Assembly (NCBI GenBank): GCA_037308085.1
Contig: CP147779.1
Location: 2,304,001 to 2,368,000, forward strand
Reading direction: 5' to 3'
Length of the DNA: 64,000 nt
Source: Promethearchaeati archaeon SRVP18_Atabeyarchaeia-1
GTDB taxonomy: Archaea > Asgardarchaeota > Atabeyarchaeia > Atabeyarchaeales > Atabeyarchaeaceae
Below the pieces are notes generated by a model. The model searched no databases and was not told the DNA's origin. It saw only the letters and a list, made by a program, of their open reading frames with translations. A program made the translations under genes and the position numbers. Within the stretch, counting starts at the first letter, position 1. Every line of letters starts with the position of its first letter. This document shows positions 4,769 to 34,713 of the stretch, piece by piece.

Positions 4769-4783
4769 GGATCAAGCTATGTC

Positions 4784-12037: not shown

Positions 12038-12799
12038 TCAGGATTCCAGCGATGAAGGCAAGGACGCTCCTCTTGCTGGTATCACATTTATTCCTTTTTC
12101 AGTGATTACCATGGGACTTGTCTTGGACTCATGAAGAGTTCCTCTCATCTTGACCACTGTAAGTCCTCGTTCAAACTTTCCACCGTGCCTTATCTGTTCC
12201 AGAAAGATCACGCCATCAGATATGAACTCCTCCACGTCATAGCGGCTTATCTGCCCCTTCCCGCGCCCCTCCGATATCAGGAGGGTTGTGCAACCGAGTT
12301 CTTTCAACGTGGCGATCAGCCGGTGGATGGCGTGCCGTATCGCGCCAGGTTCTTCGATGACGAGTTCAAGCCCAGGTATTGAGTCGAGTACTGCCCTCTT
12401 AGCATTCGTCGTTTTCTGGAGTTGGCTTATAGCCAACAGTAGAGTGTTCATGTTCAGGAGGCGGGTGACTTCGTCTCTGCCAGCATATGGAACCCTCGAC
12501 TTGGGCGAAGCAATATCTATTATCCCCAGTTTGCCATCTTTCTCCAGCTTCTCCAGATCCCACCCAAAACCTTTCATATCAGCTCTGACTGCTGAAGGTG
12601 ACTCTTCAGTTGTAATAAGAATACCATTCTCTCCGAACTTAGTGACACCTTCGACCAAGAATTGGATGCCCAAAATACTCTTTCCCGTGCCACATCCTCC
12701 AGTGACCAGAATGCACCTTCCTCTTGGAAACCCCCCGTGCAGGAGTTCATCGAGTTGCCCGATTCCAGAAGAAACCAAATTGCCTACCGGTTCACTCAT
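12038..12799 (-). CDS. KaiC-like (RAD55) single-domain ATPase
   Basis: SSGIGQLDELLHGG, Walker A GGCGTGKS, TEE, VLDS, VEEFISDG, KMRG. Confidence 0.92.
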   Translation of the reverse strand: MSEPVGNLVSSGIGQLDELLHGGFPRGRCILVTGGCGTGKSILGIQFLVEGVTKFGENGILITTEESPSAVRADMKGFGWDLEKLEKDGKLGIIDIASPKSRVPYAGRDEVTRLLNMNTLLLAISQLQKTTNAKRAVLDSIPGLELVIEEPGAIRHAIHRLIATLKELGCTTLLISEGRGKGQISRYDVEEFISDGVIFLEQIRHGGKFERGLTVVKMRGTLHESKTSPMVITEKGINVIPARGASLPSSLES

Positions 12800-13152
12800 T
12801 GCTCGCACCTTCTGCCATAACACCTAATACTCGAAGCCCAGCGCCAAGGGAATACTCTCCTGACGCAGGCGAGTCCAGAATCTGTCAAAGAGCTCCTTTT
12901 TTCTGATTCTCCGCTGAAAGACATAATGGGGCAATCCCATATTTAAGCTGTGAATCGTTTTCAACGCCTCTCCTCCTAGCAACGAGGAGCCGGCGCGAAT
13001 ATTATTCGAAACCAGCCAGTTGCTGTTCCACACCTCGATTCCCATCATCTGGCGTATCCCACATATTTTGGCTTTCTTTCCTCATTTCATGTCAAGTTGC
13101 GCCATCGTTATTCTACTCGGTCGCCCTGTACTCGTCTCAGACTTATCGTGTT

Positions 13153-13869
13153 TCACTCCGTAGCCGGTTGTGAGAGCCCCTCTGTTCGCTGGATCTCGAA
13201 CAACAGATCACGCAAACTTGTAGAAGAGTAAGGTAGATTCAGACTGGTAGCGACAAGATTCAGACGGTCTAACAATACTTTCAGATTATGGGCTAGCGGG
13301 ATATCCAGCGCTTCGATAGTTTTCAGATCCATTTCGACAACCGGTTTCATCGCACCAACTATTTTCATGATCAAGTTATCTTGCTCTGATATAAGTGTAC
13401 CTTCCTGGGCGCTTTGCCCGCTATCTAGGTCCAGCAGCCTGCATGTCTCCGCAAAGATCTCCTTCGCGAAAGAATCATCAGGATTACAGCTATCTGCAAG
13501 TTTCGCGTTGAAGCCTGCTAAGAAATCTACTATCTCGTCGATCTTGTCAGACACTAGTTTTGGCGCTCTTATACTAAAGAAGACAATGAATGAATAGTAC
13601 CCGAGAGCCGGTAGGCTCCCAAGGGTTCCGAAGCCTATGGCCTCTATTTCGTCCATTGTTATCACTATGCCGGCTGTCTTTCCCTTCGTTGTGTTGAGTT
13701 GTATCATGGACTGCATTGCCAGCTGATTGGCTTGCGCCTCAGCGAGGAAACCTGCAGGGTACCTTGTTATAGGCGTCGGCCCAGATGAGAGGTCGAACCT
13801 GGAAATGAATACCCCTTTGACATATCTTGATGGGATCATGTTGGACGAGCTTGCTGCCAATTCCCTCAT
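13153..13869 (-). CDS. uDENN/longin-like domain protein
   Basis: N-terminal VFISRFDLSSGPTP..YP matches the F-D-x3-GP-x5-P start of uDENN longins. Confidence 0.6.
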   Translation of the reverse strand: MRELAASSSNMIPSRYVKGVFISRFDLSSGPTPITRYPAGFLAEAQANQLAMQSMIQLNTTKGKTAGIVITMDEIEAIGFGTLGSLPALGYYSFIVFFSIRAPKLVSDKIDEIVDFLAGFNAKLADSCNPDDSFAKEIFAETCRLLDLDSGQSAQEGTLISEQDNLIMKIVGAMKPVVEMDLKTIEALDIPLAHNLKVLLDRLNLVATSLNLPYSSTSLRDLLFEIQRTEGLSQPATE

Positions 13870-13968
13870 AACCTCTCATTTTTCATTGTGCATAATTCAT
13901 AACTGCCGTGAGCTTCTCTATCTTCCGAACGCGGGATTCTGCGTGGATCACTTTTCCCCTCGGCATTG

Positions 13969-14580
13969 TCAGTACTTTAGTTGAGCCTTTGACTCCTGAA
14001 GCACGGTTAGGAGCTGGGCGATTCGAGCCTTAGTCCCAGGCGCCACAAGTTCCAGTCTATTAAGATGTCCAGACTCAATGAAGGAGCTGATTGCAAGTAT
14101 CGTTTTGTCAGCAACCGCTTCTAACTTGTCACCGGGTTCGTTAAGAGCTTCCTCTTCATGAGACTTCTCGCAAACCCTTCGCACTCCTTCGAATAGCCTA
14201 AGTGCGGCATCTCCAGGGTGTCGCCTCACATTCTGCAACTCGCTTATTATGAGGCTTCTAATAAGGGGATACGTCTCCCAGATCATCGATTTAGCTTCTT
14301 CCCCAAACATCACTATTATCCCGGTAGCACCTTCAACGCTACTCCCCTCGGTCCCAACCACACCAACTTTGCCTATTTGGGAAAAAGACATAATTGAGCA
14401 GAGAGCCTCTTTCTTCCCTGTTGAGAGTAGCAACATGGCGTCCTCGGCGACATCCTTTAGCCCTTCGCCCGCGATGAATCCCTGTGGGTAGATAAAAGCC
14501 GGAGCTGGGCCCAGGAGCATGTCAAATCTGGTCACAATCACTCCCTCGAAAAGTAATCGCTCTGGTGACCTGCGCGACAA
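13969..14580 (-). CDS. uDENN/longin-like domain protein, paralog of 13153-13869
   Basis: VIVTRFDMLLGPAPAFIYP start, with a similar beta-alpha-beta order. Confidence 0.6.
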   Translation of the reverse strand: MSRRSPERLLFEGVIVTRFDMLLGPAPAFIYPQGFIAGEGLKDVAEDAMLLLSTGKKEALCSIMSFSQIGKVGVVGTEGSSVEGATGIIVMFGEEAKSMIWETYPLIRSLIISELQNVRRHPGDAALRLFEGVRRVCEKSHEEEALNEPGDKLEAVADKTILAISSFIESGHLNRLELVAPGTKARIAQLLTVLQESKAQLKY

Positions 14581-15005
14581 TCTGGTTAACCCCCATTACC
14601 CCATCGTGCGTGCACTGCTCGAACACCGTGTTCAGCTAGTAGAGTAGTTGAAGTTCCTTTTATTTTCTTCTTACTTATCTTCTACACAGAATTGTCTCTC
14701 CGGGCTCCCTCGATGGTTAAGCGCTGACACCGAGACTCAACCATAGAACACCACATCCGCGATAGCCCTTTTCTCGCCTCGACTAGAGAAATTGGAGTCT
14801 GGCAAACAAGCTCTGGCCTGACTTGGGTCGGGAAAGGCACATCAAGCGCTAGGATGACTATGCGCATTATTAAGTTCATTTGCCTATGAACATTGTGAGC
14901 ATCGAAAGCGAGGTACGTTGATAGACTGTGCCCTGCAGAAATGACAACATTTATGATGCAGTGCGTGGTTAGCAGAAACTGACATGAGGGGGTGTTCTTC
15001 TGTAA

Positions 15006-15539
15006 ATGCCCATAATCAAAATTCTGATAATGGGTCTGCCAGCGTCCGGCAAGACAACTTTCGTCAAGCATGTCTTTGAAGGAAAGGAATTGAACGATCT
15101 GAAGGACTACATTCCGACATATGGCGTGAATATAGCATTGTATAACTACAAGGGCTCGGAGGACATTAAGATCTCAACCTTCGATTGTGGTGGTCAGACA
15201 AGTTTTATCGACACCTATTTGACTGATCAATGGGTTCCCAGACTCTTCGCGGAAGTCTCGGCTCTTTTCTTCGTGGTAGATTCGTCATCGAAGAAGACTC
15301 TCAAGGATGCCAACAAGCTTTTCCACAAGTACCTTGAGAACGTATACAAGTATTCTGAAGACGTAGTGATCCATGTACTGGCATCAAAATGGGACAAACA
15401 TACCATCACAAGAGATGAACTCAAGGAAGCATTCTCGGATCTCGACGTTCGTCCCATATCCGTCGTCGACGGTTCAGCCAGACAGGTTACGCAGGCGATA
15501 ATGGACAGGCTAATCAGCGAAAGGAAGACGAAAAAGTGA
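15006..15539 (+). CDS. Small Ras-superfamily GTPase, Rag/Gtr1-like (Arf-related)
   Basis: G1 GLPASGKTT, G2 PT.G, G3 DCGGQ, G4 SKWD, G5 ISV. Confidence 0.85.
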   Translation: MPIIKILIMGLPASGKTTFVKHVFEGKELNDLKDYIPTYGVNIALYNYKGSEDIKISTFDCGGQTSFIDTYLTDQWVPRLFAEVSALFFVVDSSSKKTLKDANKLFHKYLENVYKYSEDVVIHVLASKWDKHTITRDELKEAFSDLDVRPISVVDGSARQVTQAIMDRLISERKTKK

Positions 15540-15609
15540 CTCCCCTGCTTCTCCCATCTGCCAGCAATCATCGCTACGAGCAGGACTAGCAGGCTCTTGA
15601 CCTCCGCAA

Positions 15610-16362
15610 TTACCTTCGTCCCACCGTGAGCCTGCCAGTTCCACCGTTCCTCGATACTGGAATCCATTTGGACTCGAAGTTGGTCCTTCTCATCTTGGAT
15701 ATGCAGATCTCCTTGCTTATGAAGCCCTGTTGCTCTGCGTTTCTGAAGAGTATGACGGAATCGAGCAACTGCTGAAGAGAGGCCACAGTCTGCACGTCAT
15801 GCATTCCCTCCGTCAATATGAAGATCGAGGTTGAGTTTGACTCCTTGAGCTTGGCAACCATCACGGAAGCTAGTTGATAGACAGACTGGGGAGCCGCATT
15901 CATGAGCAATGACGACAGAATATCGACTGAAACCCTTATCCGCCTACCCCCTATCTTTTCGGTCGCTGTCGATACCGCGGCCGCTACGTGATTCAAATCC
16001 ATTGATGATCTTACAACCTTATCAATCACCTGAGGATAGGGAACATCAGTTGTCCGCCAACTGTAGCAATCAACGAACATTAGGCTGGACCTCTGCTCCT
16101 GCGTCAACTCGTCAAAGTCGAGGCCCACTTCCTGCCAACTCTCCTTGACTTCGTCAACAGATTCGTTTGAGAGAACCATCACTCCACCTTCACCAGCCCT
16201 CAACCCATCGGCTATGAATTGCAGGCAGAAAATGTGTTTCCAGCTTCCTGGAGGCCCGTACAGAAGAGTCGATGAACCCTGAGGTATTCCCCCCTCGATC
16301 AATGCATCAAGTCCTTCTATTCCTGAACTCATTCTTCTGCTCATTTCTCGCAGCTCCTCCAA
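15610..16362 (-). CDS. KaiC-like ATPase with degenerate Walker A
   Basis: SSGIEGLDALIEGG, GPPGSWKH in place of GxxGxGK[ST], KMRR. Confidence 0.85.
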   Translation of the reverse strand: MEELREMSRRMSSGIEGLDALIEGGIPQGSSTLLYGPPGSWKHIFCLQFIADGLRAGEGGVMVLSNESVDEVKESWQEVGLDFDELTQEQRSSLMFVDCYSWRTTDVPYPQVIDKVVRSSMDLNHVAAAVSTATEKIGGRRIRVSVDILSSLLMNAAPQSVYQLASVMVAKLKESNSTSIFILTEGMHDVQTVASLQQLLDSVILFRNAEQQGFISKEICISKMRRTNFESKWIPVSRNGGTGRLTVGRR

Positions 16363-16372
16363 GAGTTCCCTG

Positions 16373-16990: not shown

Positions 16991-17040
16991 CTCTTAACTT
17001 TCTCCTCGCGCTCTCCTTTATTTCTTTCTTCATTGACAGA

Positions 17041-17634: not shown

Positions 17635-17663
17635 TCCAATCGATTAGCTATTAGCGTTGTATT

Positions 17664-18245: not shown

Positions 18246-18281
18246 GTCACTCCTTCCATGTTTTGATGTCCTTCCCTACTT

Positions 18282-18866
18282 CTAGCTTTCCCTAATCAAT
18301 CTGTTTAGATTCTCGATTTCCCTTCTATACTTGGTCCGCAGTTCTGGATCGTCTGCAAGATGTCCCCTGTTCTCGGCAGCTTTATTGATTAGATTAGTGA
18401 GTGAATCCTTCCGAGTCGTGAGTTCCGACGCGAGGAGTTTCGTTAGTCTCTGGCCCAGTCTTATGGGCGTCCTCACCGCGTCTTGGGTTTTGACTGGGGC
18501 GTAAGGTGGCTCACTGCTCTTCTGCGAGATAGGATCATCTTCACAAATCGCGGAATTTGGGAACTTGTCCATGTCGTTTTCAGCGAATGCATTCCTCACG
18601 TTCTCATGGAACCCCGAAGTACTATCCTCGTCGTGAGAAGCATCGACCAAAGCCGCGAAGATCAGTGATGGAGATTCGTTGAAGGCAGACTTTGAGGTTC
18701 CTGATGCCATGATTCTTATGTCAACGCCGCGAATCTCTTTCATGAACGCGATCATCGCCTTGAGGAGACCACTAACAAGGTAGCAGTTCACAAGTGTCGT
18801 CCTGAAACCCTCATGGTAGATGCAGATTCCATTCTTCTCTGAGACAACGCATGGTCCATGGGTCAT
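18282..18866 (-). CDS. Longin-like domain protein
   Basis: G.CIY followed by the LVSGLL.A...F..EI helix typical of Asgard-type longins. Confidence 0.55.
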   Translation of the reverse strand: MTHGPCVVSEKNGICIYHEGFRTTLVNCYLVSGLLKAMIAFMKEIRGVDIRIMASGTSKSAFNESPSLIFAALVDASHDEDSTSGFHENVRNAFAENDMDKFPNSAICEDDPISQKSSEPPYAPVKTQDAVRTPIRLGQRLTKLLASELTTRKDSLTNLINKAAENRGHLADDPELRTKYRREIENLNRLIRES

Positions 18867-19197
18867 ATATTATCACGACACAGTGATCTTAGCGATCATA
18901 CAGCAATCGCGATTTACCCCCCCAAGACTTCCTTACCCATGCAAAGTGGCCCGGTGCCGAGGGAAAACTACAGGAAGTAGCATCTACCTGGTAACAATAG
19001 GCAGAAGCAACGATAAAAACGTTGCGAGGTCATTGTGAGATCCACAATCTCCCCCATGATATTGTGGGATAAGCAGCATAGTTCACCTGCCCTTTTATCG
19101 GAATTGGTAGCATGGATGCTGCTTGGGCCCTCATCTTCGTACTTGAGGCTGGTGGGCGCAAAGCATGGACCAATAACGAGGAAGGGATTAAGAGGTA

Positions 19198-19471
19198 ATG
19201 AACAAACCGAAATACGGTGAGAAGGTCTCCACCGGGATTCCTGGGCTGGACGAACTCATCGAAGGCGGGTTCACGGAGACCGCCGAAGGGTCGTCAGATC
19301 TCAGCGGGCCTGGCGTCGAGAAATTTCTAGCCACTGGCATAGTTTCTCCAACATTAGAATCTAGGGGCAATGAACTCCAGAAAGATCGCAATACGGAAGA
19401 TGAGAGCGGTCACGCACAGCTTGAAGGAATTTGAGCTGTTCATCACTGAACTGGGGATTGCCGTTATGCCA
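19198..19471 (+). pseudogene. Internally deleted, frameshifted KaiC-like ATPase remnant
   Basis: KVSTGIPGLDELIEGGF is joined almost directly to GVEKFLATGIV; KIAIRKMRAVTHS...FITELGIAV then follows in another frame. The P-loop core is missing. Confidence 0.8.
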
Positions 19472-19693
19472 ATTCAAGGAATTACATTAATCATCCTTTT
19501 CATGGATCTTCTTCAGGGGTTCTCTGCCAAACGTGAAGAGGTTGCCGATATCGGTCGAGTTGCGACAGTCGCACGAGGACCGGAGATTCATGCGCCGAAT
19601 AAGAATAGACCTTTAGTCGACTGCGACCACTATGGTAATTAGTGCCGTGGGCAATGGAGTCGTCTCACTAGCAGGCAGGAGCATCTGGCTAGG

Positions 19694-20509
19694 ATGATAA
19701 AAGCGGTTTGGATCCTATTGGACATCGGCCCGTGCCTGTACAGGTACGCTGCAGAGAAGCGATTCCAGGAGACAGATGAGAATCTCTTCTCAGGTTTCTT
19801 TGTTGCTTTGGAGACCTTCGCAAAAAGCATTGGCAGCGAGGAAGTCTTGAGAGTCGAACTGAGAGACTTGGCTCTTTGGTTCATGAAGGAAGCCAACGTC
19901 GTCTTCGTTGTGGCATCCGACAGAAGCGAGGATATGACTGAGATTCTGTTGAAGGTCAGTCGAGTGTTCAGTGAGGCTGCTCCAGATCTCCGTGCCCCTT
20001 TCTATAATCCACTTATCTCATCTGATGTGGCGGCACTCGAACAGAGGATTGATTCCAAAATCAGGGAGGTAATTCTATCACCAGTACCACCAGTTGGGGG
20101 GCTTGCCGAACAACTTGCCAAGGTAAAGGATGCGGTGACTTCGGCACTGCGCAAACCTCGCCCAGCCAAGCAGTCTGTCATAGCTGTGCAGGCTATCAGG
20201 CCAATTGAGGAGACAATTCCAGAACCCACTGAACCCAAGACAACTCAGCAACATGTTAGAGTGACGGGGGAGATGATTCCGAAACTGGAAAGGCCCCTAA
20301 CAGATGTTCTTAGAGAGAGGGAAAGACTCGTCAAGCGCTTCGGGGTTGCAGCGGTAGACATATTACATCATGCTGATGGCAAAATGACAGTGAGCGAAAT
20401 AGTAGCGGCGTCGAAGGCAGAGAAGAGTACGATTGAGGACGTTCTGAGTTTTGCTCAGAAGTTGGGGATTGTTGAATTCAAACAGAAAAAGCAGTATGCA
20501 AGCCCCTGA
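19694..20509 (+). CDS. Longin domain protein with C-terminal winged helix
   Basis: MIKAVWIL..G.CLY...DENLFSGFF.A..F longin, Pro-rich linker, then ILHHADGKMTVSEIV...LGIV wHTH. Confidence 0.7.
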   Translation: MIKAVWILLDIGPCLYRYAAEKRFQETDENLFSGFFVALETFAKSIGSEEVLRVELRDLALWFMKEANVVFVVASDRSEDMTEILLKVSRVFSEAAPDLRAPFYNPLISSDVAALEQRIDSKIREVILSPVPPVGGLAEQLAKVKDAVTSALRKPRPAKQSVIAVQAIRPIEETIPEPTEPKTTQQHVRVTGEMIPKLERPLTDVLRERERLVKRFGVAAVDILHHADGKMTVSEIVAASKAEKSTIEDVLSFAQKLGIVEFKQKKQYASP

Positions 20510-20930: not shown

Positions 20931-21914
20931 TCATGCCTTCCATTTCTTTATGGTTACCCTTGTTCCTCTGCCGACCTCAGTTTCGATGCTGAACTCATCC
21001 ATGAGACGCTTCGCGCCACCAAGCCCTATTCCCAGACCCCTCTTGGTGCTGAAACCACCTTCGAGGGCCTTCTCAACATCTGCGATCCCAGGTCCGCTAT
21101 CGTCTGCAATTATCACGATGCCCACTCTGTCACCCTCCTCAATGGGTTTAATGGCTATCCTACCGGCTCCATGAGCATGAGCCACGATGTTCTTTGCGAG
21201 TTCAGAAGTCGAGATTGCAATCTTGCTTTGGTCGGCTTCCGAGAAGCCTAGTTTCTTCGCCAGGTCCTCCGCTTTCTCAGCCGCGGTCATTGCACGGGCA
21301 TCACTTGAGGCATCCACCCCTTCAACAATGGATCCGAATTCCTCCTCGTTCTCAACCGCGATGGCTATGGTGGCATCATCGTTTCTATTCCCCCATTCGT
21401 CCAGGATTCTTTCAGCAACGAATTGTGGTTGTTCGTAGGCCAGGGGATAATCGGATAAACTAAACCGCCCGGAAACCCCATCTGAATAAAGAACTACCGC
21501 TCTGAGTGTGTCGTATGTGTATCCGAATTTCATAATCTTCCTAGCATTTACTCCGAGTATACCATCTAGCGAGGTAGGATGCATCGGGGGCTCGGCAACT
21601 ATTGATACATCGACATTCCCAATGCCACAAAAAATGAGTCGGTGTGCAGTTCTATCAATCCTTACTGCCCCTGCGACCACGCCTCTCGTCCCACGTAAAT
21701 GGGTATGAAGACTTGAAACGATCTGTTCGACGTCTCTCGTGTGATTCTCTAACACATATTGTCTTGCCTTAGTAGACGCAACCGCTGCTTCTTCCCCGTG
21801 ACCGAGTCCGTCTATTACGACGAGAAGCGTCTGCCCATTCCATTCCTTTACGAGATAATCGTCACCATTTGTATTCTGGTCTAATGCCGGTCTGGATGCA
21901 ATACCTAATTTCAA
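20931..21914 (-). CDS. rsbX: RsbX-like PP2C phosphatase fused to a C-terminal RsbT-like kinase
   Basis: NGD, IDGLGHG, GIGN, SDG and DDAT phosphatase motifs, followed by ELAKN, DSGPGI and GLGIGL GHKL kinase motifs. Confidence 0.85.
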   Translation of the reverse strand: MKLGIASRPALDQNTNGDDYLVKEWNGQTLLVVIDGLGHGEEAAVASTKARQYVLENHTRDVEQIVSSLHTHLRGTRGVVAGAVRIDRTAHRLIFCGIGNVDVSIVAEPPMHPTSLDGILGVNARKIMKFGYTYDTLRAVVLYSDGVSGRFSLSDYPLAYEQPQFVAERILDEWGNRNDDATIAIAVENEEEFGSIVEGVDASSDARAMTAAEKAEDLAKKLGFSEADQSKIAISTSELAKNIVAHAHGAGRIAIKPIEEGDRVGIVIIADDSGPGIADVEKALEGGFSTKRGLGIGLGGAKRLMDEFSIETEVGRGTRVTIKKWKA

Positions 21915-22117: not shown

Positions 22118-23074
22118 CTATTGTTTCTTGCTCAGCCTCAGCCCGAGTTTCTCGTACGCGTATTCTAGTCCTTCTCGCAACGTCCTGCGTGTCACGATGC
22201 CCTGCAGTTCCACACCGAGCTCCACTAGCGTAGCTGCCACATCCGGCCTAACCCCCGCGATGATCATCTCTGAGCCCATCAACCTCACGGCTTGGATCGT
22301 GCGCAGAATATGATTGGCTGCCTTCGTGTCAATCGCTGCGATGCCGCTAATATCCATAATGACGATCTCACTCTTAGCTCGTACAATGTACTCCAAGACA
22401 GATTCAGTGAACTGCCTCGCACGAGCAGAATCAAGAATACCTATCAGCGGCAGCATCACAATGCTCTCCCAGACCTCAACGATAGGAGTAGAGAGTCTTC
22501 TGATCATCTCGTCCCTTTCCTTGAGTTCATCCATGTTCCTTTTGGCTTTAATCTCCATCCGATTGCGCATTAACGCTTCGACGATGCTCACGGAGAGGGT
22601 CTCCACAGCCCCCTGATCAGTGGGATCATAGCCTGACTCCTTGTTGGCCAAAGCAATCATACCGATCGTCTTACCAGCATATTTCAACGGGACGCCCAGG
22701 AAAGAGGCTATCGGTGGATGCCCTTTAGGAGTTCCAACCCAATCGGGGTGTGTCGAAGGGTCATTGGTTATCATAGATCTCTCATCTTTCAGTACTCTCC
22801 CCCAGATCCCCCGGATCTCCAAGTTCCTAAGCAACCTCGCGGCTTCCGATCCCGGCATCCTACACTCAGCCCAACCTGGGTCACTCAAAGCAATACAGTC
22901 ATAACGACCAACTTGATTCACTTCACCTATGAAACCGAACTTGCTACCGGTCAAGCTCTCGGCAACGGCAAGGCAGGTCTTGCAGAGTTGCTCTTCTGTT
23001 TCACATGTCAACGTTTCCCTGAGAATCCTGTTTACCCCCTCCAGAATGTCGCTCCTATCAATGTCTTTTCTCAC
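22118..23074 (-). CDS. GAF-STAS protein (RsbR paralog)
   Basis: GAF domain (P.GHPPI..FLGVPL, LANK) plus STAS domain (LSTPI, PLIGILDS.RA, DISG...IDT). Confidence 0.88.
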   Translation of the reverse strand: MRKDIDRSDILEGVNRILRETLTCETEEQLCKTCLAVAESLTGSKFGFIGEVNQVGRYDCIALSDPGWAECRMPGSEAARLLRNLEIRGIWGRVLKDERSMITNDPSTHPDWVGTPKGHPPIASFLGVPLKYAGKTIGMIALANKESGYDPTDQGAVETLSVSIVEALMRNRMEIKAKRNMDELKERDEMIRRLSTPIVEVWESIVMLPLIGILDSARARQFTESVLEYIVRAKSEIVIMDISGIAAIDTKAANHILRTIQAVRLMGSEMIIAGVRPDVAATLVELGVELQGIVTRRTLREGLEYAYEKLGLRLSKKQ

Positions 23075-23609: not shown

Positions 23610-23611
23610 AG

Positions 23612-24980: not shown

Positions 24981-25544
24981 TCATAGTCTGATCACCTCAT
25001 CGCAGAATTGTCTTACCGTCGAGAGGACATTCCCTTCAACTGAACCCTCAACCGCGAAAATCGCACCGTCAAACCCGAGAACCCTAAGACGGCCAACCAG
25101 GAAGTGAAGGAAATGAAGCAGCGCGCCCGAGCTATTGTAGACTAATAGAGTTGAGAGTGAGTCGATTAATAGCCATGAGTCATCTCTCTTGCAGTTTAGT
25201 AGTTCGACAGCCTTCTCGAAAGCCATCTGCGTGGCTGACAACTCAGAGGGTGATGCTACGTTGAGGCTACCTTTCACCTCACTAGACCCGACACTCTTCG
25301 ACACGAGATCTATGACGTAGGTTTTCTCAGTCTCAAGAGACTCTCTTAGGTCAAACCCGTAGACCCTCAGCTTTTCGACAAGATCCTTTGTCGACCTATT
25401 TGAGGAGACGTAGATCCCTTTATCATCCTGCCTATACCTTAAGAAGTCTGCCACAATCTTCATCGGGTTCTCACTGACAGGAACCTCCAGTAGCACGACG
25501 GACTTGGGCACAACGCGTTTAAGCCTGTCCTCAAGTTTCACCAT
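24981..25544 (-). CDS. Inactive KaiC/RecA-fold protein
   Basis: Lacks Walker A but keeps GIYVS, ID.VS, LIDSLSTLL.YN and FCDEVI. Confidence 0.75.
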   Translation of the reverse strand: MVKLEDRLKRVVPKSVVLLEVPVSENPMKIVADFLRYRQDDKGIYVSSNRSTKDLVEKLRVYGFDLRESLETEKTYVIDLVSKSVGSSEVKGSLNVASPSELSATQMAFEKAVELLNCKRDDSWLLIDSLSTLLVYNSSGALLHFLHFLVGRLRVLGFDGAIFAVEGSVEGNVLSTVRQFCDEVIRL

Positions 25545-25563
25545 TTGAATATCGTACCTCGTG

Positions 25564-25881
25564 TCAAATCATTGATCTCTTCTTAATCTCCTCAATAGCG
25601 GTTTGCAACTCCATATCCTTGAGAAGAGCGTAATCCACATTTAGCTTATCACACAATGTCTTCAGAACCAGTCCGTCTATGACTTTGGCCCCCAGCTTGA
25701 AGATGTCTTTGATCGCTGTGGCAAAGTCTTCAAGCCTTTTCGGGATCTGGTCCTTCCTAAGTGAGAGGGCGGCCGCCAGGTAAGTGTACAGGAGCGATCT
25801 AGTACTCTCACCCAAATTCAACATCGCATCGTCTATTGAACTGAGCAGGAGTTCCTCAAAGCTATTTGGTTCGCTACTCAA
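25564..25881 (-). CDS. Small helical KaiC-associated output protein (DUF3227/NitrOD5-like)
   Basis: SID..L..LGES....Y.YL....IP...E.F...I..IF..GA..I pattern; lies between KaiC-like genes. Confidence 0.6.
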   Translation of the reverse strand: MSSEPNSFEELLLSSIDDAMLNLGESTRSLLYTYLAAALSLRKDQIPKRLEDFATAIKDIFKLGAKVIDGLVLKTLCDKLNVDYALLKDMELQTAIEEIKKRSMI

Positions 25882-25935
25882 CTAGCTACCTCCCTACGTT
25901 CGCTGCTTGAAGATACGATAGATTAAACCAGATTA

Positions 25936-26640
25936 TCATCTACTGGCAGCGGGAATTGAGGACACGCTTATGCCTTCGGACGTGATATAGAAGTCGTGGC
26001 AATCCAATGAATGGTCGACGCCACGCATCTTTGGAATGTAGATCCTTCTCCTAACCTTGTTTTCCTCCAAACTCGATTCGAGGATGATTAGTCCGTCAGC
26101 TAGGAATTCCTCAAATCCCATTCCTATCTCCCTCTTGCCCCAGGGAATCTCCAAGATGAGGAGGGTTGTGCACCCAGTATTCGAAAGCAACTTGCTCATC
26201 ATTGAGATGAAGCTGCGGGCCTCAGACCTTGTGTGGACATAAGTCATGATAGCGGAGAGGCTGTCGACCACGAGTCGCTTGGCACCAAGTTCCGTGATGG
26301 AAGAGATCAGCTCTGCGAGGTTCGCTTCGACGCCTCTGTCGCTTGCCGACTGTACAAGGTCTAGAACGCTGAGCTTTCCTCCTTGCCCCAGCTTGTCCAG
26401 ATCCCAGCCAAGTCTGAGCATATCTCGCTTGAGCTTGGCGGCGCTCTCAACAAAGGATGCATAGATCCCCGGCTCATTCAGCAGCGATACACCGTTATAA
26501 ATGAACTGCATACCAAGAGTACTTTTCCCGGCGCCAGGCTGACCCGCTACCAGAATCACGTCTCCCTCATTGAAGCCACCGTCAATTATCCTATCCAGGG
26601 AAGGGATCCCCGAAGACAACACGTTTCTTCTCAATCTCAA
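25936..26640 (-). CDS. KaiC-like (RAD55) single-domain ATPase
   Basis: SSGIPSLD, GQPGAGKS, VVDS, EEFLADG, KMRG; TTG start at about 26640. Confidence 0.92.
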   Translation of the reverse strand: MRLRRNVLSSGIPSLDRIIDGGFNEGDVILVAGQPGAGKSTLGMQFIYNGVSLLNEPGIYASFVESAAKLKRDMLRLGWDLDKLGQGGKLSVLDLVQSASDRGVEANLAELISSITELGAKRLVVDSLSAIMTYVHTRSEARSFISMMSKLLSNTGCTTLLILEIPWGKREIGMGFEEFLADGLIILESSLEENKVRRRIYIPKMRGVDHSLDCHDFYITSEGISVSSIPAASR

Positions 26641-26886
26641 TATCCCCCTGCATGATCGTCCCACCTTAATGGATACGGAAATGATTACCGCTGAACCTTA
26701 AAAGGATTTGACCGAGCACCGCATTACCGATGCTCCCTGGTGCGAGATTCGCATCGCACGTCCCCCCTCCCCCTCGGAGCGTTTGGTGTTGAGTCTTTCA
26801 CATCCCGCTTCACCGATGCGCTCCACAACATTTCCGACGGAGTTGCTTGGATATCATAAAAAGGGAGTGAACTCACTTCCATAGAC

Positions 26887-30375: not shown

Positions 30376-30440
30376 CCTATCATTCCACTCCTTAAGATGA
30401 CTCTTTTAGATTATTCACGAAAATGCGAATCATTGCTCAA

Positions 30441-31301
30441 TTATGAATCCGACTTCCGGAGCTTCCTAAACTCCGTCAGGAATTCCCTGTTCAGCTCCAT
30501 AAGTTTGGAGGGGACGCCAGATGATGGCGAGCTAGGAACCCTCAAGATCTTCTCCCTCACAGCCGGGGCTTCAAAGGCATTCGATGCTTCTGGCACTGGG
30601 GTCGGTCCCATTTCTACAGCGGCGGATCTTCTCCCGACTATGCCCGCATTAGTCTTCGACTGAGATGACTTCGCAGAGGAAAGCACGCTCTTCAGCTCAT
30701 CTATCATCGCTCTTCTTGTATCCGACGGACCGCCCGGCTGGCCGAATTCCCTTCTTGGACCTCTCGGTGCCGTAGTTGCGGGTTGTCCAAGGTTCGTTGC
30801 TCGCTGAGAGTCTGCTTCATGCTCAGCGCTTACTCTGCCTGGAGCCCTGGAGTCAACAGTCTTAGGTTGTGCAACTGCTTCGCTCAGCTCATTCATCATT
30901 TTCAGTCTCGCGGGAGGCTCGGAGAATGTGGGGAACTCTTGATGCCACTTTGACTGCCTCTGCTCAATCACAGACAGTTTCTCAACGTACACGTCCCTGA
31001 GTCTTTCGTAGACTTTCGGGCCGACTATTCCCTCTTTCTTAGCTTTTTCGAGTGAGTTCAACGCTGCTTCAGCTGCTGCTTTTTCCACACCTAGCTTGAA
31101 GGCCTCCTCCCACCATGGGTCAGTCGGAAGCCCGATTGTGCTTCTGCTCCTCGTAGTAGGATGAGTTGAGCCTCTGGCTCCCATTTTCTCTCGCCGTTTT
31201 ACCCTGCCTTTCCCGTCTTTCTTCTTTCCCAACTGCACCAGCCTCAGTCTTTTGCTTCGAAGGACTCGTGACAAGGACATACTCGGTGATTGAATGGACA
31301 A
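30441..31301 (-). CDS. Hypothetical protein with short coiled coil and Pro-rich disordered tail
   Basis: Long ORF co-oriented with the TrmB-like gene; G.V...Y..L...Y helix; start uncertain. Confidence 0.6.
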   Translation of the reverse strand: MSIQSPSMSLSRVLRSKRLRLVQLGKKKDGKGRVKRREKMGARGSTHPTTRSRSTIGLPTDPWWEEAFKLGVEKAAAEAALNSLEKAKKEGIVGPKVYERLRDVYVEKLSVIEQRQSKWHQEFPTFSEPPARLKMMNELSEAVAQPKTVDSRAPGRVSAEHEADSQRATNLGQPATTAPRGPRREFGQPGGPSDTRRAMIDELKSVLSSAKSSQSKTNAGIVGRRSAAVEMGPTPVPEASNAFEAPAVREKILRVPSSPSSGVPSKLMELNREFLTEFRKLRKSDS

Positions 31302-31533
31302 GCTATCGAGACCGGACAGGATGATGTGATGAATGGGCTACGGTATCACTGCCAGCCTTGCTTGGATCGGACCCCCTTGCCAATCTTCGCAGAGATCTTC
31401 GTAACCTGTCCGGTGGACACTAATCAATTTCGAGTATAACTTATATAGATGTTTCTGGCATGTTGTATCTTACCCAACAATTCCTCGCCTTTTTTTGCGA
31501 GAGCCGCAAAAGCAGGGGGATGTGTAACCTACA

Positions 31534-31953
31534 ATGTCTCAAGATGTGACATTTGCTAAGATGGTAAAGCTCTCTGATGAGCCGATAGTTCTGCCAAGCA
31601 TGTTTCAAAAGGTCTTGGGGGAAAACAAACATGCGCTAATGATCCTCGCGGTCTCCACCAAGACAATCCGGTTGATTCCCACGGCAAGCCCAGAAGTGGT
31701 GAAGGTTGGTATTGAGATCAAGCAGTTGACCCCAGAATACCTCAAGAATATGAGTGAAGCATTCGTTAAGCATGACCTGAAGGTTGTTTACTCTACTGGA
31801 TTCTGCTACAAGGGTGAAAAGTGCATTTACGAAGCATACTTTGATCCTACAGAGATCAAGATGGACGACGACAAGCTCAGGGAGATAATTCAGTCACTGG
31901 AGGGCACTACGAGGATCGAAGTCACAAGGATCAATACAGAATCTTCTTCCTAG
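31534..31953 (+). CDS. Hypothetical protein, possible ACT-like domain
   Basis: Alternating beta/alpha pattern with YSTGFC...C.YE.YF. Confidence 0.55.
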   Translation: MSQDVTFAKMVKLSDEPIVLPSMFQKVLGENKHALMILAVSTKTIRLIPTASPEVVKVGIEIKQLTPEYLKNMSEAFVKHDLKVVYSTGFCYKGEKCIYEAYFDPTEIKMDDDKLREIIQSLEGTTRIEVTRINTESSS

Positions 31954-31988
31954 TCAGGAATCAGAGACTGGAGCTTAATCAATCACTT

Positions 31989-32291
31989 GTGAAGCGTGGT
32001 TTCATGATCGTCTTGGACAGCCTTGCTACTGGGGGTTTGCGTTTGGAAGACATCGGAACCATTGATGCGACCTTAGGAGAGGTCGGAGAGGCTACGTTGC
32101 TGGCTCTAAAAGATGGGGCTAGAACTCCTGAGGAGATACGGGCATTGACGGGCCTTGTTCCAAAGTTGATTTCGGCTCGCTTGCGCGTGCTGGTTGACTT
32201 GAAGTTGGCAACAGTGGGCTCTGATGGATATCTCCTGACCGAACAAGGTCTGGAACTAGCCAAGCTTGTCGCAGAGAGAAGGAATGCATAG
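31989..32291 (+). CDS. Winged helix-turn-helix protein
   Basis: T..EI...TGL....I..RL..L....L......Y.LT..G. Confidence 0.7.
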   Translation: MKRGFMIVLDSLATGGLRLEDIGTIDATLGEVGEATLLALKDGARTPEEIRALTGLVPKLISARLRVLVDLKLATVGSDGYLLTEQGLELAKLVAERRNA

Positions 32292-32400
32292 AAGCCTCTT
32301 GTATGGGGGAGAAATCACCCCCTTCACAGAGGAAAGTCGAGGGATTTGGGTTTGGAGGACCCATTAGAACCTGTTAAGTTCTGCAAGGGAGTGGATCTGC

Positions 32401-32859
32401 GTGTCAAAGAAAGGCGCTGATGAGAAATCAGACAAGAGGGGTGGAGTTACCTATCTTCTGTGTGTAGCGATTATTGGATACGATGAGCAAAATGATAAGC
32501 CTGTGTTAAAGGCAAGCTACCCTGAATTTGATCTCAGTGAAGGCACCCTAAGCGGCGTATATTCTCTCTCATCTTTCACCGGAAACGAGCCAGGCTTCAT
32601 CTCGCTTGGGGTTGACGAAGGCGTAGTGATGAGTTATTACACTGGCGTCCTAGAGCCTATGCGCTGCCGGCCTCATTGTCTGGTTCTCTTCCTCGATAAA
32701 CCAGACAAACCCGAAAGATACAGGCAACTTCTGACTAAGCTGGGGTCTGTAGTCTTTCCCCTTCTCTGTGATAGAGACTTCAAGGAGTTTGTTAGGAAAC
32801 TCTACGAGGCGGCGTCACTGACAGGTGAACTCAGATCAAAGCGTTCCTATTACGCATGA
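32401..32859 (+). CDS. uDENN/longin-like domain protein
   Basis: AIIGYDEQNDKPVLKASYP start, with YYTG and a following hydrophobic strand. Confidence 0.5.
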   Translation: MSKKGADEKSDKRGGVTYLLCVAIIGYDEQNDKPVLKASYPEFDLSEGTLSGVYSLSSFTGNEPGFISLGVDEGVVMSYYTGVLEPMRCRPHCLVLFLDKPDKPERYRQLLTKLGSVVFPLLCDRDFKEFVRKLYEAASLTGELRSKRSYYA

Positions 32860-32994
32860 ACTGGCAGATTCAACTCTTGGGCGGCTGCGCCGTAACGGGT
32901 TTGAGCCAAGAGAAACGAAAAACTGAGGAGAGACCGAGCTGAATTCGCTCTCCACGGAGATTGCCTCAGAGAATGAGTTCAGAAGGGGGATCTG

Positions 32995-33303
32995 ATGCAA
33001 ACGACGATAAGGTTCTTCACATCCAAGCACTGTGGCTTCTGCCGAGCAGCAAAAACAATACTAGACGGAATCAAGCAGAGCTTCGGCGAGAGCATGAGGG
33101 TAGAGGAGGTAGACATTGACGAGAATCCCCGAGCCGCAATCGAAGAAGGAATACTCGCACTCCCAGTTATCATCGTAGGTTCTTGGAAGTTCGTGGGGGT
33201 TCCTGACAAGGATGACATCATGACAGCAGTACTTAATTCCTTTGGCGGCCAAACGATCACTGCTTCAGAAAACAACAGAGAGATTCTCCAGGAGGGCAGA
33301 TAG
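32995..33303 (+). CDS. Thioredoxin-fold protein, KaiB-like, directly upstream of KaiC
   Basis: CGFC active site, VDIDENP..A...GILALP, G.P. Confidence 0.8.
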   Translation: MQTTIRFFTSKHCGFCRAAKTILDGIKQSFGESMRVEEVDIDENPRAAIEEGILALPVIIVGSWKFVGVPDKDDIMTAVLNSFGGQTITASENNREILQEGR

Positions 33304-33307
33304 CACA

Positions 33308-34048
33308 ATGGATAGAACACCTTCAGGCATAACGAATCTCGACAAGCTAATAGAAGGAGGATTCCCAAAGGGGAGGACGATGCTTGTAGCAGGGGGGGCA
33401 GGGTGTGGGAAGACCATTTTCTCGTTGCAGTTCGTGTACTCGGGTGCAGTGCTTTACGATGAACCGGGGGTCTATGTCTCATTTGAGCAGCCTGTTGACG
33501 AAGTAGTTAGGGACGCGCAGAGATTCGGGTGGGACTTCGAGGAGATTCAGCGAAACAAGAAACTCGCACTCCTAGATTACTCCGCTGCGAAGACAAGAAC
33601 AACGGAGGTAGTCGTCGAGAGCCCAGAGTTCAACCTAAACCCTCTGATCAAAGCCATCGAGTTCACAGCCAAGGAAGTGGGCGCCAAGAGAGTCGTACTT
33701 GATTCCATTACTGCACTCCTCTTGCAGTTCCGGCACACGGACATTGTTCGTAGGGAACTGCAGCGTGTTAGTTCAGCTTTGAAGAGGATTGGATGCACCA
33801 CGGTCTTAACCTCGGAAGTGCCCAGAGGCCAGGTTGGATTCGGTAGGTTTGGTGTAGAGGAGTTCGTCGTAGATGGGGTAATCGTTCTCCAAGTCATTCA
33901 GAAGGGACTGCTGAGATTTAGGTGCATTGAGATAACTAAGATGAGAGGCACGAAAGCCGAGCTTGGGCTGAGAGCCTTAGGCATCACTGAAAGTGGGATG
34001 ATAGTATACCCAGAGAAGGTGTACACGATCGAGCAACTAGTCGTGTGA
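33308..34048 (+). CDS. KaiC-like (RAD55) single-domain ATPase
   Basis: PSGITNLD, GGAGCGKT, SFEQ, VLDS, VEEFVVDG, KMRG; ATG at 33308, 4 nt after the thioredoxin stop. Confidence 0.93.
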   Translation: MDRTPSGITNLDKLIEGGFPKGRTMLVAGGAGCGKTIFSLQFVYSGAVLYDEPGVYVSFEQPVDEVVRDAQRFGWDFEEIQRNKKLALLDYSAAKTRTTEVVVESPEFNLNPLIKAIEFTAKEVGAKRVVLDSITALLLQFRHTDIVRRELQRVSSALKRIGCTTVLTSEVPRGQVGFGRFGVEEFVVDGVIVLQVIQKGLLRFRCIEITKMRGTKAELGLRALGITESGMIVYPEKVYTIEQLVV

Positions 34049-34173
34049 GAATTACCGATCACTTCTAAGCTCAGGGAGGAAAGATTATTAGCAAGAATCG
34101 TCTGCTCAATGCATGTCAACAATGAGATCAAATCGAGCCACCTAAGTATCGCTAGTCGGGTGCTAATCGAAAA

Positions 34174-34713
34174 ATGCCTACTATAATCAAACTAATAATA
34201 ATGGGTCTACCGTCGTCGGGGAAGACAACGTTCGTCAAACACATATTCGAAGAGAAGGAATTCAAGGGGATCGAAGACTACAAGCCGACGTTTGGCGTAG
34301 GCATATCTCTTTACGAGTATAAGGGTTCAGAAGGCATGATGGTCTCCACGTTTGACTGTGGGGGTCAGACAAGTTTCATTGACACATATATGACTGACCA
34401 ATGGGTTCCGACCCTCTTCGGAAAAGTCGCCATATTCTTTTTCCTTGTCGACTCCTCAGCAAGAGATAACCTGGATAGTGCCGCTAAGCTCTTTCGCAAG
34501 TACTATGAGAATCTTAGGAGGAATTCAAGCGCCGCAAAGGCATATGTACTGGCATCAAAATGGGACAAGCATCAAGTCATGCTTGACGAGTTGAGTCCGT
34601 TTTTCAAAGAGATCGACATATACCCAGTATCGGTCATAGACGGATCAGCTCGGAAAGTGTTCGAAGAGATAATGCATAACCTAATAGAGGAAAGAAAAGC
34701 GCAAGCAGATTAG
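34174..34713 (+). CDS. Small Ras-superfamily GTPase, Rag/Gtr1-like; close paralog of 15006-15539
   Basis: GLPSSGKTT, FDCGGQTSFIDTY.TDQWVP, SKWD. Confidence 0.85.
   Translation: MPTIIKLIIMGLPSSGKTTFVKHIFEEKEFKGIEDYKPTFGVGISLYEYKGSEGMMVSTFDCGGQTSFIDTYMTDQWVPTLFGKVAIFFFLVDSSARDNLDSAAKLFRKYYENLRRNSSAAKAYVLASKWDKHQVMLDELSPFFKEIDIYPVSVIDGSARKVFEEIMHNLIEERKAQAD

Follow-up and report, generated by a model that had tools for sequence, protein, structure and literature searches.

Four separable modules of KaiC-type ATPases, longin-type proteins, Rag/Gtr-like GTPases and a stressosome in one Atabeyarchaeia chromosomal island

We analysed a window of 64,000 nucleotides (bases 2,304,001-2,368,000) of the single-contig, 2.81-Mb genome of the Asgard archaeon SRVP18_Atabeyarchaeia-1 (CP147779.1), and within it a ~23-kb signalling island at window positions 12038-34713 (positions below are window coordinates unless a genome is named). 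The island consists of four modules, each conserved internally and able to be unlinked from the others. M2 comprises KaiC_A, the paralogous GP-motif longins LonA and LonB, and GTPase1; M1, the longin LonC, three V4R proteins and a dead KaiC (iKaiC_B); M4, KaiC_D, a small protein (unk105), iKaiC_C and a stressosome; and M3, the giant winged helix-turn-helix (wHTH) coiled-coil protein big1162, followed by a wHTH protein, LonE, a thioredoxin, KaiC_E and GTPase2. The pairing of a KaiC with a longin is the repeating unit: KaiC_A stands with LonA/LonB, a KaiC pseudogene with LonD, iKaiC_B with LonC and KaiC_E with LonE. Our reading is that the span is a real chromosomal, Atabeyarchaeia-specific cluster of four separately inherited modules, built on this unit of an active or dead KaiC-type ATPase and a longin, and that the modules probably act as a modular switch; we give this reading a probability of about 0.6.

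Gene content was checked with Pfam. An earlier sequence-only reading of the same DNA had listed three intact KaiC-like ATPases, two degenerate ones and one remnant, three V4R proteins, two small GTPases and five Rsb genes, and the Pfam matches together with inspection of the sequences confirmed this inventory. Within 0.8% of the length of the 2.81-Mb genome lie six of its ~22 KaiC-like loci, all three of its close V4R paralogs and its sole stressosome; elsewhere it holds ~16 more KaiC-like loci, but neither a further close V4R paralog nor a second stressosome. The binomial probability of the KaiC clustering is 2e-8, or ~2e-6 with window correction. Since the island KaiCs are not each other's nearest paralogs (that of KaiC_A, 49% identical, lies outside the island at 1.118 Mb), the cluster is not a tandem duplication or array.

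The assembly across the span is sound. One contig from the probable source run covers 15000-34900, and contigs from an independent study cross the junctions at 20509/20931 (LonD/PP2C), 24828/24981 (RsbR/iKaiC_C) and 26664/26887 (KaiC_D/big1162). As the module junctions are bridged by independent contigs, misassembly, which the sequence-only reading had named as a threat to its proposal, is ruled out.

Gene order of the modules among relatives

Named relatives of the island's lineage-specific proteins were limited to Candidatus Atabeyarchaeum deiterrae (Atabeyarchaeia-2, CP147780) and 'Promethearchaeati archaeon LC30'; complete Atabeyarchaeia chromosomes have been described (PMC11291895, PMC11529989). 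Gene order in the island's own genome (G000) was compared with that in the complete sister genome of Atabeyarchaeia-2 (G002), in a 94% complete genome (G001) and on the related contigs L009, L010, L011, L013, L026 and L030-L033, of which L009-L013 are metagenome contigs with LonA identities of 60-84%. Contig L009 reads big1162, KaiC_D, unk105, iKaiC_C, a PAS~HATPase_c_2 fusion, LonD and an intact KaiC (both on the minus strand), LonC, two V4R genes, iKaiC_B, LonB, LonA and KaiC_A, with no GTPase1. The order in L013 is the same, but with four V4R genes and with GTPase1, and both contigs also bear a LonE ortholog. In L011, a deletion takes KaiC_D, iKaiC_C, the kinase slot, LonD and LonC, and the rest is retained. 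In G002, the modules occupy four sites (1.59, 2.066, 2.107-2.116 and 2.285 Mb) spread over ~700 kb. The first carries a KaiC and then LonC, four V4R genes and iKaiC_B; the second, LonB, LonA and KaiC_A; the third, GTPase2, KaiC_E, the thioredoxin, LonE and unk139, then unk286 and big1162, then GTPase1; and the fourth, KaiC_D, unk105, iKaiC_C, RsbR, RsbS, RsbT and a PP2C~kinase fusion, which aligns with G000 as one DNA stretch of 80% identity. These four sites, together with the replacement of the stressosome in L009 and L013 and the loss of the kinase slot in L011, indicate that the modules are separable. The sequence-only reading had proposed synteny as a check on the island: all four modules do co-occur in G002 and are contiguous in close relatives, but in G002 they are unlinked.

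Within modules, gene order is well kept. Orthologs of KaiC_A (71-95% identity) come after the longin pair in L009, L010, L011, L013 and G002; in L010 and G001, an N-domain-only LonD-N-like protein comes after KaiC_A, the order in L010 being LonB, LonA, KaiC_A and this protein. LonC orthologs lead the V4R operon in L009, L013 and G002. Contigs L030-L033 repeat the M3 order, and the set of LonE, thioredoxin, KaiC_E and GTPase2 is kept in G002, L030 and L032; KaiC_E orthologs in L026, L030 and L032 are 77-82% identical. Two in-frame TAG codons were seen in G002, one each in the orthologs of GTPase2 (G002:C1:2107570-2108094) and RsbR (2286145-2286981), and either may be the terminal stop only.

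Two links outlast the reshuffling, as judged from conserved adjacency. The first joins the longin pair to a GTPase. LonB-LonA adjoins a GTPase1 ortholog in divergent orientation in G000, L011 and L013 and in convergent orientation in G001, where LonB, LonA and a minus-strand GTPase share one contig. The longin-GTPase pairing of the sequence-only reading thus holds up: there are two paralogous longin+KaiC+GTPase sets in one genome (M2 and M3), and the GP-longin pair stands beside a GTPase1 ortholog in three other assemblies and in two arrangements. GTPase1 orthologs also adjoin big1162 in G002, L026, L030, L031 and L033. The second link joins an RsbT-type kinase to the KaiC_D/unk105/iKaiC_C trio. 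After the trio comes the stressosome in G000 and G002 and the PAS~HATPase_c_2 fusion in L009; L013 has this kind of fusion too, at the edge of the fetched sequence, and iKaiC_C at least, in G001, lies beside such a fusion (72% identical to RsbT), on a different contig from the longin pair. The kinase domains of the PAS fusions are 60-72% identical to RsbT. Across relatives, the sensor changes between stressosome and PAS domain but the kinase keeps its KaiC neighbours. An RsbT-type kinase adjoins KaiC_D, unk105 and the dead KaiC in five genomes or contigs, and the stressosome-KaiC connection that had been read from this sequence is borne out.

Beyond these relatives, the components are sparse. 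Among 61 relatives, the LonA family was confined to its own family apart from a weak match in one other; wider scans gave two loci on genome contigs and four on metagenome contigs. RsbT-like kinases occurred in 5 of the 301 Asgard genomes sampled. One of the genomes with a stressosome, G278, belongs to another Asgard family (L035:1-1945, L034:7336-19999), and same-strand genes for a PAS/GAF histidine kinase, three receivers and two hybrid kinases come after its stressosome operon. Past one opposite-strand gene lie a 269-aa protein, a Gtr1/RagA GTPase of 310 aa and an Arf-like GTPase of 344 aa with an N-terminal extension; there is no KaiC. The C-terminal half of the 269-aa protein is weakly LonC-like (hhalign 60%, E 9e-5). 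This neighbourhood is a single independent indication that a stressosome and Rag-like GTPases can lie side by side in Asgard archaea. The stressosome of another genome, G147, has neither KaiC nor GTPase near it.

The sequence-only reading had joined the parts into a single pathway, in which the whole island would form one linear chain from the stressosome, through RsbT acting on a KaiC switch, to the longin regulators and finally the Rag-like GTPases. In its favour, the modules adjoin one another in G000 and in no fewer than two related metagenome lineages (L009 and L013, with their LonE orthologs), all four co-occur in G002, and the arrangement in G278 points the same way. However, the modules lie ~700 kb apart in G002, a PAS-kinase replaces the stressosome in L009, L013 and G001 (RsbR was not found in this 94% complete genome), and L011 retains M1, M2 and M3 although LonD and the whole kinase slot are gone; there is no KaiC in the G278 neighbourhood, nor KaiC or GTPase beside the G147 stressosome. 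A single linear chain is therefore unsupported, and we consider it improbable.

Conversely, the four operons might be unrelated signalling units brought together by local rearrangement, with no cross-talk beyond each operon. The independence of the modules in G002 and their variable order would fit such neutral juxtaposition, GTPase1 being found beside big1162 (G002, L030, L031, L033) or beside the longin pair (G000, L011, L013, G001), as would the signs of decay and turnover: the KaiC pseudogene, the L011 deletion and the gain or loss of a GAF-STAS gene. Chance, though, would hardly have gathered so large a share of the genome's KaiC-like genes, its close V4R paralogs and its only stressosome in one place (~2e-6 after correction), with KaiCs that are not recent duplicates, and the same families recombine repeatedly among themselves and not with unrelated genes. 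We regard this explanation as distinctly unlikely. A mobile element or anti-virus island built of KaiC-like ATPases, GTPases and kinases is very improbable indeed: Atabeyarchaeia-1 has 14 integrated elements and a reported strain-variable region with two Arf-like GTPases (PMC11529989), contigs from independent samples are fragmented with loose ends over the stressosome, and big1162 has weak ZorA matches, but neither the span nor its immediate surroundings carry an integrase, a transposase or any further mobile-element gene, the housekeeping flanks are kept in relatives, GC is uniform (0.48-0.51), PADLOC run on ten key proteins gave matches in two only (ZorA on the big1162 coiled coil and a 33-residue P-loop stretch of KaiC_D), and M4 of G002 aligns together with its KaiC neighbours as a single stretch, as vertical descent predicts.

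Longin-type proteins, GTPases and KaiC-type ATPases

The sequence-only reading had counted five longin/uDENN-like proteins. LonA and LonE are borne out by structural models and LonB by homology, LonC and LonD are leads, and no DENN domain was found; none of the five candidates matched a Pfam family, even at E up to 10. LonA (13153..13869, minus strand) is a GP-motif longin with a C-terminal helical bundle. Its AlphaFold2 (AF2) model, with a predicted local distance difference test (pLDDT) score of 77.6, has a β-β-α-β-β-β-α domain and then helices only, from residue 129 to 226. A structural search with VIA-align placed the Lokiarchaeal Roadblock-Longin protein first (8yqg, Z 12.8), followed by Lst4 (11.5), SMCR8 and FNIP2 (11.1), a GATOR1 chain (10.8), an SEA chain (10.2) and FLCN (9.7), with SNARE, DENND, TRAPP and Roadblock proteins ranking below. 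Foldseek alone gave LonA no match at E 0.001 or better, the longin GTPase-activating proteins (GAPs) coming first at 0.006-0.07. The LonA family is small: among 1.8 billion proteins it has no more than 21 word-level homologs and 13 representative clusters. G27 and P28, in the loop that leads into strand 2 (β1-β2 hairpin), hardly vary within it.

LonB (13969..14580, minus strand) is a LonA paralog (hhalign against the LonA family 99%, E 8.6e-18), and LonA always adjoins it. In LonB, R-F-D-x-x-x-G is invariant and the next P nearly so (G24, P25), so that both families retain F-D-x-x-x-G-P. LonE (32401..32859, plus strand) is an NPRL2/3-like longin whose chain stops at the end of the longin domain (AF2 model, pLDDT 76.8); its best structural matches were the Lokiarchaeal longin 8yqg (Z 12.1), GATOR1 (8fw5_B, 12.0) and SEA (8adl_S, 11.3), and its ESM features led to NPR2, C9orf72 and DENND11 clusters. 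Comparisons by hhalign of LonE with LonA and of LonD with LonE were not significant, and the LonB and LonE family profiles found no longin protein among PDB sequences.

For LonC and LonD, look-alikes in the ESM Atlas are the lead to a longin-type N-terminus. LonC (18282..18866, minus strand), the first gene of the M1 operon, appears to combine a Fuz/Mon1-type longin-like N-domain with a coiled-coil tail: its Atlas features scored 0.90 to Asgard clusters named 'First Longin domain of FUZ/MON1/HPS1', and its structure gave a template modelling (TM) score of 0.72 (by row) to a cluster with Fuz_longin_1 in 35% of its members. LonD (19694..20509, plus strand) has a putative longin-like N-domain and a C-terminal winged helix, for which the TrmB, HTH_5 and HTH_47 matches are weak. 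Its TM scores (by row) were 0.82 to an Asgard cluster with Fuz_longin_1 in 35% of members and 0.75 to TRAPP Sybindin, and hhalign gave 86% for kinship of LonC and LonD. G12 of LonD is invariant and P13 nearly so. The GP motif is thus present and conserved in LonA, LonB and LonD and absent in LonE (which has K-P) and LonC.

Both GTPases have Gtr1_RagA as their top Pfam family. GTPase1 (15006..15539, plus strand; Gtr1_RagA 4e-22, 79 bits; Arf 2.7e-17) is a 177-aa protein divergent from LonB across 425 bp, and GTPase2 (34174..34713, plus strand; Gtr1_RagA 1.3e-17, 64 bits), the last gene of M3, has 179 aa; they share 60% identity. Each is a G domain only and is without the C-terminal roadblock dimerisation domain (CRD) that defines Rag/Gtr dimers. 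Their motifs read GxxxxGKT, an invariant switch II DCGGQ and a G4 SKWD, and the best PDB matches were Gtr1, Arl1 and RagA. The closest relatives outside Atabeyarchaeia (G019, G239, G296; L039:9320-10246) are 35-47% identical and ~308 aa long; their 140-aa C-terminal extension, which has no Pfam match, is possibly a roadblock domain that the island GTPases have lost. Two open reading frames (ORFs) on the strand opposite GTPase1 and overlapping it (14682-15071 and 15227-15667, both minus) are probably not genes. Prediction of a complex of the LonA and LonB longin domains with GTPase1 and GTP returned ipSAE values of 0.13 and 0.17 (mark 0.32), which is no evidence either way.

The KaiC domain (PF06745) was found in five proteins at 33-241 bits against a cutoff of 26.6, the sixth locus being the pseudogene. 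KaiC_A (12038..12823, minus strand; 1.5e-71; Walker A, TEES and Walker B present), KaiC_D (25936..26664, minus strand; 1.4e-60; P-loop GQPGAGKST) and KaiC_E (33308..34048, plus strand; 1.7e-69) are intact, and inspection of their sequences found the Walker A GK[ST], catalytic Glu and Walker B Asp complete in all three. For KaiC_E, the ATG at 33308 is a likelier start than the TTG ORF at 33242. The catalytic motifs are incomplete in iKaiC_B and iKaiC_C. iKaiC_B (15610..16362, minus strand; KaiC 5e-33, DUF7504 8e-13, MEDS 5e-6), the last gene of the M1 operon, starts 10 bp past V4R_1 and has a degenerate P-loop, G-P-P-G-S-W-K-H, in which GK[ST] is replaced; iKaiC_C (24981..25544, minus strand; DUF7504 5.9e-8, KaiC 5.3e-8) has no P-loop. 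In the pseudogene (about 19198..19642, plus strand), comparison with the intact orthologs of L013 and L009 shows residues 26-176 deleted, residues 1-25 fused to ~177-213 and then a frameshift, so that Walker A and B are gone. As this KaiC is intact in L009, L013 and G002, its loss in this genome is recent. A circadian KaiABC oscillator was rejected: all the KaiCs are single-domain (187-261 aa) with no CI-CII arrangement, the KaiB score of the M3 thioredoxin was 18.3 bits against a cutoff of 27, and no KaiA was found.

The stressosome and the remaining genes

The stressosome genes lie on the minus strand. RsbR (23983-24828) matches full-length Listeria RsbR (7b0u, 1.5e-32) over residues 12-270 and has a STAS domain (6.8e-13); RsbS (23612-23986) is a single STAS domain (6e-30 to B. 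subtilis RsbS, 6jhk) in which the phospho-Ser of D-S-F is aligned; and RsbT (23205-23609) is a HATPase_c_2 kinase (1.5e-13). The core is tightly packed, with a gap of -4 bp between rsbR and rsbS and of 2 bp between rsbS and rsbT, and its G002 orthologs are 87-94% identical. Downstream lie a GAF-STAS gene (22118..23074; GAF_2 7.6e-24, STAS 1.5e-14), an RsbR paralog with a GAF sensor whose C-terminal 175 aa are 57% identical to RsbR, and a fusion of an RsbX-like PP2C phosphatase with HATPase_c_2 (20931..21914; SpoIIE 3.4e-6, 27.6 bits against a cutoff of 25; HATPase_c_2 8e-11). The kinase half of this fusion is 49% identical to RsbT, and the whole G002 ortholog is 87% identical. The genes expected of a stressosome module are thus present: RsbR with sensor and STAS domains, RsbS with its Ser, the RsbT kinase and a PP2C phosphatase downstream. 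Pfam found none of the Bacillus-type output genes RsbU, RsbV, RsbW or sigma-B in the span; these are not needed for a minimal rsbRSTX module (PMC9237108). The protein identities of 87-94% might suggest that the stressosome passed recently from one of the two Atabeyarchaeia to the other by horizontal transfer, but this was rejected: the DNA aligns at 80% as one piece that includes the flanking KaiC genes, and the protein identity therefore reflects constraint.

The sensor slot itself is variable. GAF-STAS is missing in G002, and a 1.27-kb gap in the G000-G002 DNA alignment falls exactly there. Contigs of the independent study are broken up over the stressosome (20991-24748), with loose ends at 22917 and 22954 inside GAF-STAS, where alternative sequence joins, suggesting coexisting strain variants of the sensor slot.

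The three V4R paralogs of M1 (16373-16990, 17041-17634 and 17664-18245, all minus strand; 5.5e-12 to 2.5e-14, 46-53.5 bits against a cutoff of 31) share 43-56% identity and keep the Cys cluster, and relatives have 2-4 copies; V4R_2 had no match among PDB sequences. V4R proteins and small GTPases are reportedly partners of archaeal KaiC-like ATPases. The thioredoxin of M3 (32995..33303, plus strand), 4 bp before KaiC_E, has a CGFC motif and is of the MJ0307 type (redox_disulf_1 5.7e-18, Glutaredoxin 1e-6, Thioredoxin 2e-6). The sequence-only reading had called it KaiB-like; KaiB scored 18 bits against a cutoff of 27, and the MJ0307-family thioredoxin was the best match. A 167-aa ORF at 32979-33482 (minus strand), antisense to thioredoxin and KaiC_E, is probably not a gene; it has tblastn matches in relatives because it shadows these two genes.

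That almost every gene in the span is a signalling component, as had been stated, goes too far, for five genes are of unknown role. The gene for unk105 (25564..25881, minus strand), between KaiC_D and iKaiC_C, gave no family match, and its orthologs in L009, L011 and G002 are 68-86% identical and in the same position. The protein big1162 (26887-30375, minus strand) has an N-terminal wHTH, ~900 aa of helical repeats and a C-terminal domain (TrmB 5.5e-4, Apolipoprotein-like helices) and is paired with unk286 (30441-31301, minus strand); the pair is kept beside M3 in L011, L026 and L030. A full-length, 25%-identical big1162 paralog lies at G000 1,089,628-1,092,894, and tandem copies (L030:7-1782 and 2742-6203) flank the GTPase1 ortholog in L030. 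At the head of M3 stand unk139 (31534-31953, plus strand; orthologs 69-72% identical) and a small putative wHTH gene (31989-32291, plus strand; orthologs 61-63%; wHTH families at E ~0.07-0.1), orthologs of which occur in L026, L030 and L031. By eye, unk139 appears to combine an AbrB-type N-terminus with an ACT-like C-terminus, which no family match supports.

GC across the span is even (0.48-0.51), scans of the window for tRNA and Rfam families gave zero matches, and the flanks, kept in relatives, carry ordinary metabolism: dihydrodipicolinate synthase (DHDPS), a sugar-phosphate isomerase-like barrel, methylmalonyl-CoA (MM-CoA) mutase, TatD and ThiI. Directly after GTPase2, on the opposite strand, is a 434-aa protein with ~11 TPR repeats (34829-36133). 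Farther on are a glycyl-radical enzyme like pyruvate formate-lyase (PFL) with an N-terminal SCP2 domain (44520-47456) and, beside it, a 1120-aa alpha-2-macroglobulin-like protein (47879-51241).

A proposed modular switch and its relation to known systems

The gene identities, folds, motifs and conserved adjacencies set out above lead us to favour the following mechanism, in which each protein-protein step and the direction of the signal are what we infer. In M2 and M3, a hexameric KaiC ATPase would serve as a nucleotide- or phosphorylation-driven switch that sets the state of a longin platform, a LonA/LonB heterodimer in M2 and LonE in M3. The platform would in turn govern the GTP cycle of the neighbouring CRD-less Rag/Gtr-like GTPase, most likely as a GAP, an activity made likelier by the GP motif. 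In M3, the CxxC thioredoxin may provide a redox input and the small wHTH protein a possible transcriptional output. In M4, the stressosome (RsbR, GAF-RsbR and RsbS) would hold or release the serine kinase RsbT, whose downstream partner would be the KaiC_D/unk105/dead-KaiC trio and not a sigma-factor cascade; the sensor varies among relatives but the RsbT-type kinase keeps its KaiC and dead-KaiC neighbour genes, which points to a new output for stressosomes. The three V4R proteins of M1, which resemble small-molecule sensors, could form a ligand-sensing scaffold with the longin and the dead KaiC. Cross-talk between modules would probably run through hetero-oligomers of KaiC and dead KaiC, with no obligate linear chain; a network shared across modules is plausible from their linkage.

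Several points weigh against this mechanism. LonB, LonA and KaiC_A of L009 have no GTPase1 beside them and GTPase1 of G002 lies 40 kb from the longin pair, so that longin-GTPase adjacency is frequent but not obligatory. The comparison genomes are all close kin, which limits the independent weight of conserved adjacency, and no KaiC or recognisable island longin was found near the closest outside GTPase relatives, in the stretches fetched from four other Asgard genomes. No Arg finger equivalent to that of NPRL2, FLCN or SMCR8 was identifiable from the sequences of LonA, LonB or LonE: the strand3-strand4 loop of LonA is acidic with no conserved Arg, and LonB orthologs have Lys there. A conserved basic residue does precede F-D in strand 1 of the LonA and LonB families. 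A DENN domain is absent after the longins, LonA continuing in helices only and LonE ending there, and the LonC and LonD folds are leads taken from Atlas look-alikes. Interaction is, for every pair, a proposal.

Membership of the island longins in the FLCN/NPRL2/SMCR8 family is not established: they have the fold and the GP motif, but neither a DENN domain nor a match to the Pfam profiles Folliculin, NPR2, NPR3 or C9orf72-like. A bolder version of the proposal, which we offer tentatively and would not expect to hold, is that LonA/LonB (and LonE) are a prokaryotic forerunner-type of the FLCN-FNIP, GATOR1 and C9orf72-SMCR8 GAPs, acting on CRD-less Rag/Gtr-like GTPases and gated by KaiC, which would integrate stressosome, thioredoxin redox and V4R inputs. 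If true, this would amount to an Asgard 'proto-Rag nutrient/stress switch' in which a KaiC hub of archaeal type takes the place that Ragulator/TOR-side regulators have in eukaryotes. Apart from this bolder version, the region links the stressosome, a sensor imported from bacteria, and the KaiC hub concept of archaea with GTPase regulators of eukaryotic type, all within a single organism whose genome is closed.

Asgard genomes are rich in longin, Roadblock, V4R/TRAPPC3-like and small-GTPase proteins. The GP motif is reported to be specific to GAP-type catalytic longins (FLCN, NPRL2, SMCR8, C9orf72) and occurs also in some Asgard longins, for which it was left open whether Rag/Gtr or Arf-related GTPases are the partner (PMC12290439). 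The island offers a rare gene-order clue to the GTPases that Asgard GAP-type longins serve: a GP-motif longin pair and an NPRL-like longin, each conservedly placed with a Rag/Gtr-like GTPase and a KaiC, are concrete, small and soluble candidate partners. No description of these conserved neighbourhoods was found in the literature searched. Like the eukaryotic longin GAP heterodimers that act on Rag/Arf GTPases (FLCN-FNIP/Lst7-Lst4, GATOR1 NPRL2-NPRL3 and C9orf72-SMCR8), M2 has side-by-side paralogous longins with a GP motif before strand 2 and an adjoining Rag/Gtr-like GTPase gene, and these heterodimers are among the best structural matches of LonA (Z 10.8-11.5). Unlike them, it has a helical bundle in place of DENN, matches no family at the sequence level and shows no Arg finger that could be identified; its GTPase is without a roadblock domain, there is no Ragulator, TOR or lysosome context, and KaiC is the constant partner.

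MglA-MglB and the Asgard Roadblock/longin-GTPase proteins (PMC10933270; PDB 8yqg, 9m28) likewise combine a small Ras-superfamily GTPase with a dimeric Roadblock/longin platform, and the Lokiarchaeal Roadblock-Longin protein is the top structural match of both LonA and LonE. Here, however, the components are separate genes in conserved neighbourhoods, and KaiC is no part of those systems. GTPase genes of MK-D1 are generally outside operons with Roadblock, longin and TRAPPC3 genes (Tran et al. 2024, PMC10933270). M1 recalls the TRAPP core of Bet3-family and longin subunits in that several V4R paralogs, of a fold related to Bet3/TRAPPC3, are co-encoded with the longin-type LonC next to a small GTPase gene (PMC10933270). 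It differs in that the V4R proteins keep the Cys cluster of ligand sensors, a dead KaiC is in the operon and GTPase adjacency is not kept in G002.

Minimal rsbRSTX stressosomes are described from Vibrio vulnificus, Moorella thermoacetica and 'even some archaeal species' (PMC9237108). The island module shares with them the RsbR with sensor and STAS domains, the Ser of RsbS, RsbT in overlapping or abutting genes, a downstream PP2C and the lack of a sigma-B cascade. It differs in its Asgard host, in the fusion of PP2C to a second RsbT-like kinase, in the GAF-RsbR paralog and in its neighbours, which are KaiC, dead KaiC and a small protein and not two-component or diguanylate-cyclase outputs; in close relatives, moreover, a PAS-kinase fusion replaces the scaffold.

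The closest parallel is the proposal of archaeal KaiC hubs (Makarova, Galperin & Koonin 2017, mBio 8:e01959-17), as described in PMC5847659 and PMC13700489. In that proposal, as here, many single-domain KaiC-like ATPases and inactivated KaiCs (iKaiC/DUF7504/MEDS-like) group with sensor and output domains, and they are put forward as hubs. Relative to the hubs described there, the partner fold in the island is longin, including the GP-motif 'GAP-type', instead of Roadblock, the GTPases are Rag/Gtr-like, one module receives a complete stressosome input and four modules are packed in 23 kb. What is new in comparison with the known KaiC hubs is the partnership with GAP-type longins and Rag/Gtr-like GTPases, the stressosome input and the concentration of four modules in one place.

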